From the IMG/VR virus record IMGVR_UViG_3300009146_000014, positions 1 through 62,715 of that record: DNA of 62,715 nt; one strand, written 5' to 3'. Under the pieces are notes generated by a model. The model was given only the letters and a program-made list of their open reading frames with translations, made no database searches and was not told the origin of the DNA. This document shows positions 52,730 through 52,765 of the stretch, one piece after another. Both the position numbers and the translations under genes were made by a program. The DNA comes from a virus. Taxonomy: Duplodnaviria; Caudoviricetes. Within the stretch, counting starts at the first letter, position 1. Each line of letters opens with the position of its first letter.

Positions 52730-52765
52730 GGCCGAAGAATCTGAGAGCACCGTAGCTAGAGAGCG
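52730..52765 (+). ncRNA. Solitary tigRNA-like unit in the primase leader
   Basis: GGCC-GAAGAATCT-GAGAGCACC-GTAGCTAGA-GAGCG; same spacing as the array units. Confidence 0.65.

Follow-up and report, generated by a model that had tools for sequence, protein, structure and literature searches.

A solitary tigRNA-like unit just upstream of the primase gene of a phage encoding a nuclease-free Tas protein

The Tas protein and the main array

The DNA considered here (the window, that is, the whole analysed stretch of 62,715 bp) corresponds to a near-complete phage genome, with completeness estimated at 97% in its IMG/VR virus record. It carries a gene for a nuclease-free Tas protein (tasA, 44878-45735, minus strand), a long dual-repeat TIGR array on the same strand (43116-44886) and two solitary repeat units. 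One of them, designated U2 (52730-52765, plus strand), lies just before a primase gene, and its twin, U1 (51639-51674, minus strand), lies before the gene of a ribonucleotide reductase.

The 285-aa product of tasA matches PHROG 4285 (E = 5.4e-51), and its C-terminal 200 residues match by sequence the PDB entry 9mty (E = 1.1e-13) and TasH (E = 1.3e-8), the PDB alignments starting at residue 87-92. The title of 9mty is [quoted passage not shown], and TasH is the only match that bears a Tas name; 9mty is taken to be TaTasR, since its 331 residues equal the length of TasR in the legends of PMC12045711. Pfam detects no nuclease domain in the protein, neither HNH nor RuvC ahead of the Nop domain, returning only a weak Transposase_20 match, and for this reason it was classed as TasA. 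Proteins of this type are described as RNA-guided repressors, and a Tyr/His processing loop as typical of dual-repeat systems (Xu et al. 2026, 10.64898/2026.09.09.750476). In the HMMER alignment, Tyr272 and His279 of the phage protein fall on Y289 and H296 of SpTasH, the residues reported to cut the pre-tigRNA (PMC13421893), and judging from this correspondence TasA looks competent for pre-tigRNA processing.

The main array is formed by about 46-48 units of 36-37 nt, in which an edge repeat (GAGCGAGCC) and a loop repeat (GAGAGCACC) are combined. Its first unit overlaps the final codons and the stop of tasA (44878-44886), which leaves the array without room for a promoter of its own. At the opposite end, the last edge repeat is 3'-truncated and is followed after 8 nt by the ATG of a gene with a DUF7694 domain (42724-43107, minus strand; Pfam E = 1.3e-27), in agreement with the initial annotation, where the array was said to end at the ribosome-binding site of this gene. 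From the position of both junctions, the array plainly appears to be co-transcribed with its flanking genes. Four 9-nt spacers occur twice in the array, with differing partners each time (for example, the units with loops at 44872 and 44783 share their spacer B, and units 43903 and 43866 their spacer A), which suggests growth or shuffling by half-unit recombination.

Two solitary units facing outward

In order to locate units lying apart from the array, the pattern GCC-N9-GAGAGCACC-N9-GAGCG, with 17 fixed positions, was scanned across the window allowing up to two mismatches, with 100 shuffles as the null. Twenty-six of the 28 matches fall inside the main array, and the two others (52731-52765, plus strand; 51639-51673, minus strand) are both perfect, against a shuffle expectation of 0.04. 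A unit HMM built on 22 array units and searched with nhmmer, the main array being masked, returned U2 (E = 8.2e-4) and U1 (E = 2.6e-3) as the only matches with E < 1, the next one having E = 1.9. The same pattern, again with up to two mismatches, has no match in 795 kb of DNA from 138 unrelated primase-bearing loci. It could be argued that U2 resembles an array unit by chance, the shortness of its motifs being the only point in favour of this; the shuffle expectation, the HMM E-values and the empty primase loci leave this reading almost no probability, and on the match counts it was ruled out.

The U2 sequence can be divided into a 5' handle of 4 nt (52730-52733), spacer A of 9 nt (52734-52742), the loop repeat GAGAGCACC (52743-52751), identical to the array loop at 9/9 positions, spacer B of 9 nt (52752-52760) and the 3' handle GAGCG (52761-52765), with a 5/5 match. 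The 5' handle matches at 3/4 positions, the GCC being kept and the first base being G where A is expected. Each spacer is preceded by GCC or ACC and followed by GAG. From box C to box D, with the full loop repeat standing between two 9-nt spacers, the unit occupies 36 nt, the span expected for a mature tigRNA when the cut site is assumed to lie inside the edge repeat, as array termini and the solitary units of relatives indicate. The initial annotation had proposed at this place an orphan tigRNA-like unit, in sense orientation and ending 20 nt before the primase GTG, and the unit reads exactly so, with 17/17 fixed positions. U2 is therefore confirmed as a complete orphan unit of the dual-repeat TIGR kind, matching the phage's own array. 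U1 shows the same organization on the minus strand, also with no pattern mismatch, with its 5' handle at 51674-51671, spacer A at 51670-51662, loop at 51661-51653, spacer B at 51652-51644 and 3' handle at 51643-51639.

In both units the HMM match is limited to positions 7-41, meaning that the two edge repeats are truncated, and full flanking edge repeats are absent on either side of U2. Such handle-limited conservation is the form displayed by the first and last units of the arrays described in PMC12045711. A second unit beside U2 was not found even at loose thresholds, and tasA lies 7 kb away, which places U2 outside the definition of a tandem array (at least two units next to tas). Only 17 of the 46 parsed array units have no core mismatch, whereas both solitary units are perfect, with 9/9 spacing. 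A G directly after the loop repeat is found in U1, U2 and 27/46 units of this phage's array; in several related phages an A is found where this array has that G. The spacers of U1 and U2 are separated from the array spacers by a minimum Hamming distance of 2-4, the same as the background among array spacers, indicating that the solitary units are not fresh duplicates of array units.

U1 and U2 point outward from a 1.1-kb segment made up of a RuvC-like gene and about 500 nt with no supported gene. Rightward, U2 heads a gene for a zinc-ribbon/Toprim primase of 297 aa (52786-53679, plus strand; Pfam Zn_Ribbon_Prim, DUF7146 and Toprim_3), followed by a superfamily-2 helicase gene (53454-55163, plus strand; Pfam ResIII, DEAD and Helicase_C). 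The GTG at 52786, in the same sense as U2 and 20 nt beyond it, is the earliest start that the primase could use after an in-frame stop. Leftward, which is also the direction of tasA and the main array further on, U1 heads the ribonucleotide reductase large-subunit gene (49890-51602, minus strand; Pfam Ribonuc_red_lgC, E = 1.3e-102), the distance from the end of the unit to the ATG (51602) being 36 nt. It had been proposed that both orphan units precede DNA-replication genes, and the Pfam assignments do place a gene of DNA metabolism after each of them. Only about 30 bp separate U1 from the start of the divergent RuvC-like gene, and for this reason U1 may precede the transcription start.

The RuvC-like resolvase gene (51704-52231, plus strand) was assigned through PHROG 159 (E = 7.9e-8), with no match in Pfam or among PDB sequences. 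Its position is exactly between U1 and U2, which both face away from it, and the Tas protein of the phage is nuclease-free. The stretch that follows it and extends to U2 (52232-52729) holds no supported gene according to ORF, Rfam and tRNA scans: its seven small ORFs have no PHROG match, and neither an Rfam family nor a tRNA was detected in it. It does contain a 26-nt imperfect inverted repeat (52561-52586 and 52648-52673), whose arms are 77% complementary and 61 nt apart, and the predicted RNA fold of 52440-52790 has z = -2.7. A structured leader, an origin-like element and a small RNA are all possible identities of this stretch. A shorter inverted repeat of 12 nt (52701-52712 and 52749-52760, 83% complementary), present in the predicted fold, would allow RNA upstream of U2 to pair with spacer B and the final part of the loop repeat. 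An annotation scan predicted no promoter-like sites and gave no excess of terminator-like sites over shuffles, and the GC skew is without a turning point. Among DNA contigs from the probable source run and two soil runs, parts of 49.7-52.6 kb are covered by a near relative, with 52680-52863 left outside this coverage; a single contig of 171 nt (51657-51827) extends over 17 nt of U1 and has no change listed there. This coverage is too small to carry weight.

Two weaker signals had been noted upstream of U2. The octamer AAGAATCT, which belongs to a spacer of the unit, does recur at 52696-52703 as annotated, but such a recurrence is near chance, since 10.4% of random pseudo-units drawn from the same genome repeat a spacer 8-mer within 150 nt. 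Likewise, the GCGAGCC half-repeats are present at 52638 and 52671, and also at 52555; this heptamer has, however, 29 copies outside the array, and as decayed units the half-repeats were rejected, given their E = 80 against the unit profile.

Related phages and targets of the guides

The same two repeats occur in over 119 stretches of IMG/VR contigs, whose TasA relatives are at most 61% identical to the protein studied here. For the primase, identity to the closest relatives does not exceed 43% in viral contigs or 45% in metagenome contigs; none of these relatives is accompanied by a unit, and no orthologous comparison of U2 can be made. The comparison covered 15 independent phage records (G003 being an identical part of G015). 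Five of them (G001-G005) had been selected for the solitary units seen in an earlier screen, which biases any frequency drawn from them, and the other ten were chosen by length only. Among these ten, six have at least two separate arrays (G006, G007, G008, G009, G011 and G015) and two have single-unit loci (G011 and G015). For long ORFs located up to 400 nt from an array in the first six records, the strand is that of the array in 33 cases and the opposite one in 7.

The small loci of these relatives have one to four units, with handles truncated in the same way as in U1 and U2 (AGCC or GAGCC at the beginning and GAGCG at the end). Typically, a solitary unit or mini-array starts 3-18 nt past one ORF and ends 6-55 nt before the next; other solitary units are followed by a hairpin that, judged by eye, is terminator-like. 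The genes found after them encode a DUF927 protein, SNF2 helicases, a ParB-methylase, TasA itself, a DUF2201 protein and products without assignment, and tblastx among the neighbourhoods of solitary units revealed no common flanking genes except between G002 and G005. Scattered small loci within DNA-metabolism operons are, accordingly, a property of the clade, and are not peculiar to replication genes. What the relatives display looks like guide genes scattered through a DNA-metabolism module, not like a replication-specific regulon.

Some individual cases deserve mention. In G002, a 61-kb record, a solitary unit and its terminator-like hairpin are part of the repeated ends and so occur twice (L233 330-367 and L236 1339-1376). 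In G005 a solitary unit (L240 8347-8382) ends 25 nt before tasA, and in G003/G015 a 12-unit array (L231 14785-15221) ends 3 nt before that gene; a solitary unit or array in such a position would let TasA act on the leader of its own mRNA. The most scattered case is that of G015 (including G003), with about 11 separate TIGR loci of 1-53 units distributed on both strands over 70 kb.

Targets were searched for by taking spacer A followed, on the same strand, by the reverse complement of spacer B, a geometry derived from the reported 8-nt 3' overhangs. The search of the phage genome was carried out with 40 guides (the two orphan units and 38 parsed array units), four geometries and gaps of 0-2, and the best self-matches had 2-5 mismatches, the true geometry performing as the three control geometries. 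In 2.0 Mb of related phage loci, none of the 40 guides had a target with at most one mismatch in the true geometry, and the matches with two mismatches numbered 8 in the true geometry, against 10-35 in the controls. The best self-match of an array guide, that of the unit with its loop at 43751, falls at 46276-46293 (plus strand), inside an exonuclease gene, with 2 mismatches and gap 0; it is probably due to chance, as the control geometries gave equally good matches.

The sites close to the solitary units were considered separately. The AAGAATCT copy, located 39 nt upstream, is a half-site, and it does not make a canonical target: the best match for the other half shares 3 nt with it and has central mismatches. 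The only other exact copy of U1 spacer A in the genome (52543-52551, minus strand) falls in the non-coding stretch before the primase; it is again a half-site, the adjoining 9 nt not fitting U1 spacer B. When compared with their own 3' boundaries in the true geometry, U1 matches at 15/18 positions (9/9 plus 6/9, gap 1) and U2 at 14/18. These self-match signals were found post hoc. Over the 15 records, a match of at least 5 between spacer A and the flank occurs in 8/40 terminal units, against 15.6% expected; as a general design, own-boundary pairing was therefore rejected, the 40 terminal units following the null.

Possible roles of the solitary units

The reading that best accommodates these data, to which a probability of roughly 0.6 is given, takes U2 for a one-unit TIGR locus situated in the leader of the primase, which would be co-transcribed with the primase gene, bound by TasA and probably the origin of an extra guide, U1 being the matching one-unit locus in the leader of the ribonucleotide reductase. 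In this model, U2 is transcribed together with the primase gene and its box C/D motifs would be recognized by a TasA dimer, and such binding to the U2 transcript is considered likely. TasA may then excise U2 as an additional guide, with its own 18-nt specificity. For excision the odds are judged to be slightly short of even, given that the edges of U1 and U2 are truncated on both sides and that, in minimal arrays, full edge repeats on each side were reported to be necessary for processing (Faure et al., PMC12045711). Alternatively, the truncated edges would prevent cutting and TasA would stay on the leader. In both cases TasA would cut or cover the primase mRNA at a point 20 nt ahead of the start codon; that this alters primase expression at all is doubtful, and any such effect would be a by-product and not the expression of a dedicated replication regulon. 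The proposal of the initial annotation that a small regulon of cis-elements coordinates the replication genes found no computed support, the self-targets being no better than controls and the genes concerned in relatives being varied.

A dedicated regulatory element, in which TasA sitting on the primase and ribonucleotide reductase leaders sets translation or stability and the guide role is irrelevant or lost, is unlikely. The units do lie in sense, 20 and 36 nt ahead of start codons, and their truncated edges may block excision and leave TasA on the leader; the solitary unit and the 12-unit array found 25 and 3 nt before tasA in relatives would make feedback possible; and an analogy can be drawn with the degenerate mini-CRISPRs that regulate cas genes (bioRxiv 10.1101/2023.03.10.532045). 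However, the solitary units of relatives precede varied genes or hairpins, the short intergenic space of these phages puts any intergenic element near start codons, and U2 keeps the full guide anatomy, with two 9-nt spacers, which would be superfluous in a pure protein-binding site. It is improbable, in turn, that U1 and U2 are neutral relics, single units seeded in intergenic DNA by recombination or array growth and without a role of their own. In favour of relics, the four doubled spacers make half-unit shuffling visible, the first handle base departs from the AGCC of relatives, and no target was found in the phage genome or in 2 Mb of related phage DNA. Against them, both units are perfect at 17 positions and in both spacings, whereas 29/46 array units are imperfect; solitary units and array have no spacer in common, and among unrelated phages of the clade several have solitary units too, bounded in every case by the same handles.

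The tigRNAs of U1 and U2 might also guide TasA, as a roadblock, to partial matches in their own control region, with the leader beside each unit, the AAGAATCT copy and the U1 spacer A copy at 52543-52551 as candidate sites. Guided nuclease-free TasA is reported to repress transcription (Xu et al., 10.64898/2026.09.09.750476), the 15/18 and 14/18 matches of U1 and U2 to their own boundaries are on a par with the match reported for wcaD, an off-target of TaTasR, and the sole other exact copy of U1 spacer A falls in the non-coding stretch before the primase. Against this stand the null behaviour of the flank matches in the 40 terminal units (8/40 vs 15.6%), the nature of the remaining sites, which are half-sites or have a 3-nt overlap with central mismatches, the p of about 0.10 for the 8-mer repeat and the post hoc character of all these signals, making autoregulation by self-targeting very improbable.

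A bolder proposal, for which the odds are decidedly low, is that in this phage clade tigRNA units double as TasA-dependent operon punctuation. Solitary or terminal units located 3-40 nt before the starts of the primase, ribonucleotide reductase, helicase and tasA genes would be bound or cut, the level of TasA would determine where the DNA-metabolism mRNAs begin, how stable they are or how they are translated, and each excised leader would become a guide, which in the case of U1 and U2 could pair with the DNA boundary of the unit itself. If this were true, an RNA-guided system would be wired into the gene expression of the phage that carries it, and would not act solely against other DNA.

The organization of U2 can be compared with that of known systems. 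U2 shares with the dual-repeat TIGR arrays of PMC12045711 the edge repeat, the 9-nt spacers A and B, the loop repeat and the 36-nt unit, as well as the box C/D-like ends in both repeats and the truncated 5' and 3' edges seen at array termini; as in those systems, the genome also codes for a cognate Tas protein with a Nop domain. It differs from them in being a single unit, 7 kb from tas and on the strand opposite to that of the main array; U2 has no terminator and lies 20 nt before the start codon of a protein gene. Arrays have been reported upstream, downstream, on both sides of, or inside tas (Xu et al. 2026, 10.64898/2026.09.09.750476). The solitary repeat units of phages known as RNA anti-CRISPRs (PMC10651486) are similarly scattered single units that bind an RNA-guided effector, such binding being predicted in the case of U2; they mimic, however, host CRISPR repeats and disarm host Cas proteins, whereas U2 matches the phage's own array and TasA and keeps two full spacers. 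U1 and U2 also recall the CreR mini-CRISPRs and crRNA-like regulators (bioRxiv 10.1101/2023.03.10.532045 and 10.1101/2024.10.29.618823), which are one-spacer mini-arrays placed off the main array. Those regulators belong to CRISPR-Cas, not to TIGR-Tas, and regulate through partial matches to nearby promoters, whereas for U1 and U2 the search in the correct geometry gave no partial self-target beyond chance, their own-boundary matches being 15/18 and 14/18.

TIGRFinder, the published search tool, scans around tas loci and keeps dual-repeat clusters only from four box C-spacer-box D intervals, or two units, upward (10.64898/2026.09.09.750476), and by this design single-unit loci are removed and have stayed uncatalogued. 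The main texts of PMC12045711 and 10.64898/2026.09.09.750476 make no mention of solitary or orphan units, although their supplementary tables may list small loci, and a literature search on orphan, solitary or mini-array tigRNA units gave only unrelated papers among the matches listed. Solitary units far from tas, in leaders and between cistrons, mean that guides are not confined to arrays, and in the favoured reading the production of guides would be tied physically to mRNAs of replication and recombination genes. What TIGR-Tas systems do in nature, especially the nuclease-free TasA, and how the arrays originate and grow are described as open questions. For the former, U2 offers a simple system of one unit, one protein and one leader, in which cutting of mRNAs by TasA could be told from occupancy and in which it could be seen if truncated edges are enough for maturation; for array origin, handle-bounded solitary units are the smallest possible seeds to be considered.

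Elsewhere in the window, a lone exact copy of the loop repeat, devoid of handles, is present at 3830-3838 (plus strand); with E = 1.9, it is likely a chance occurrence.
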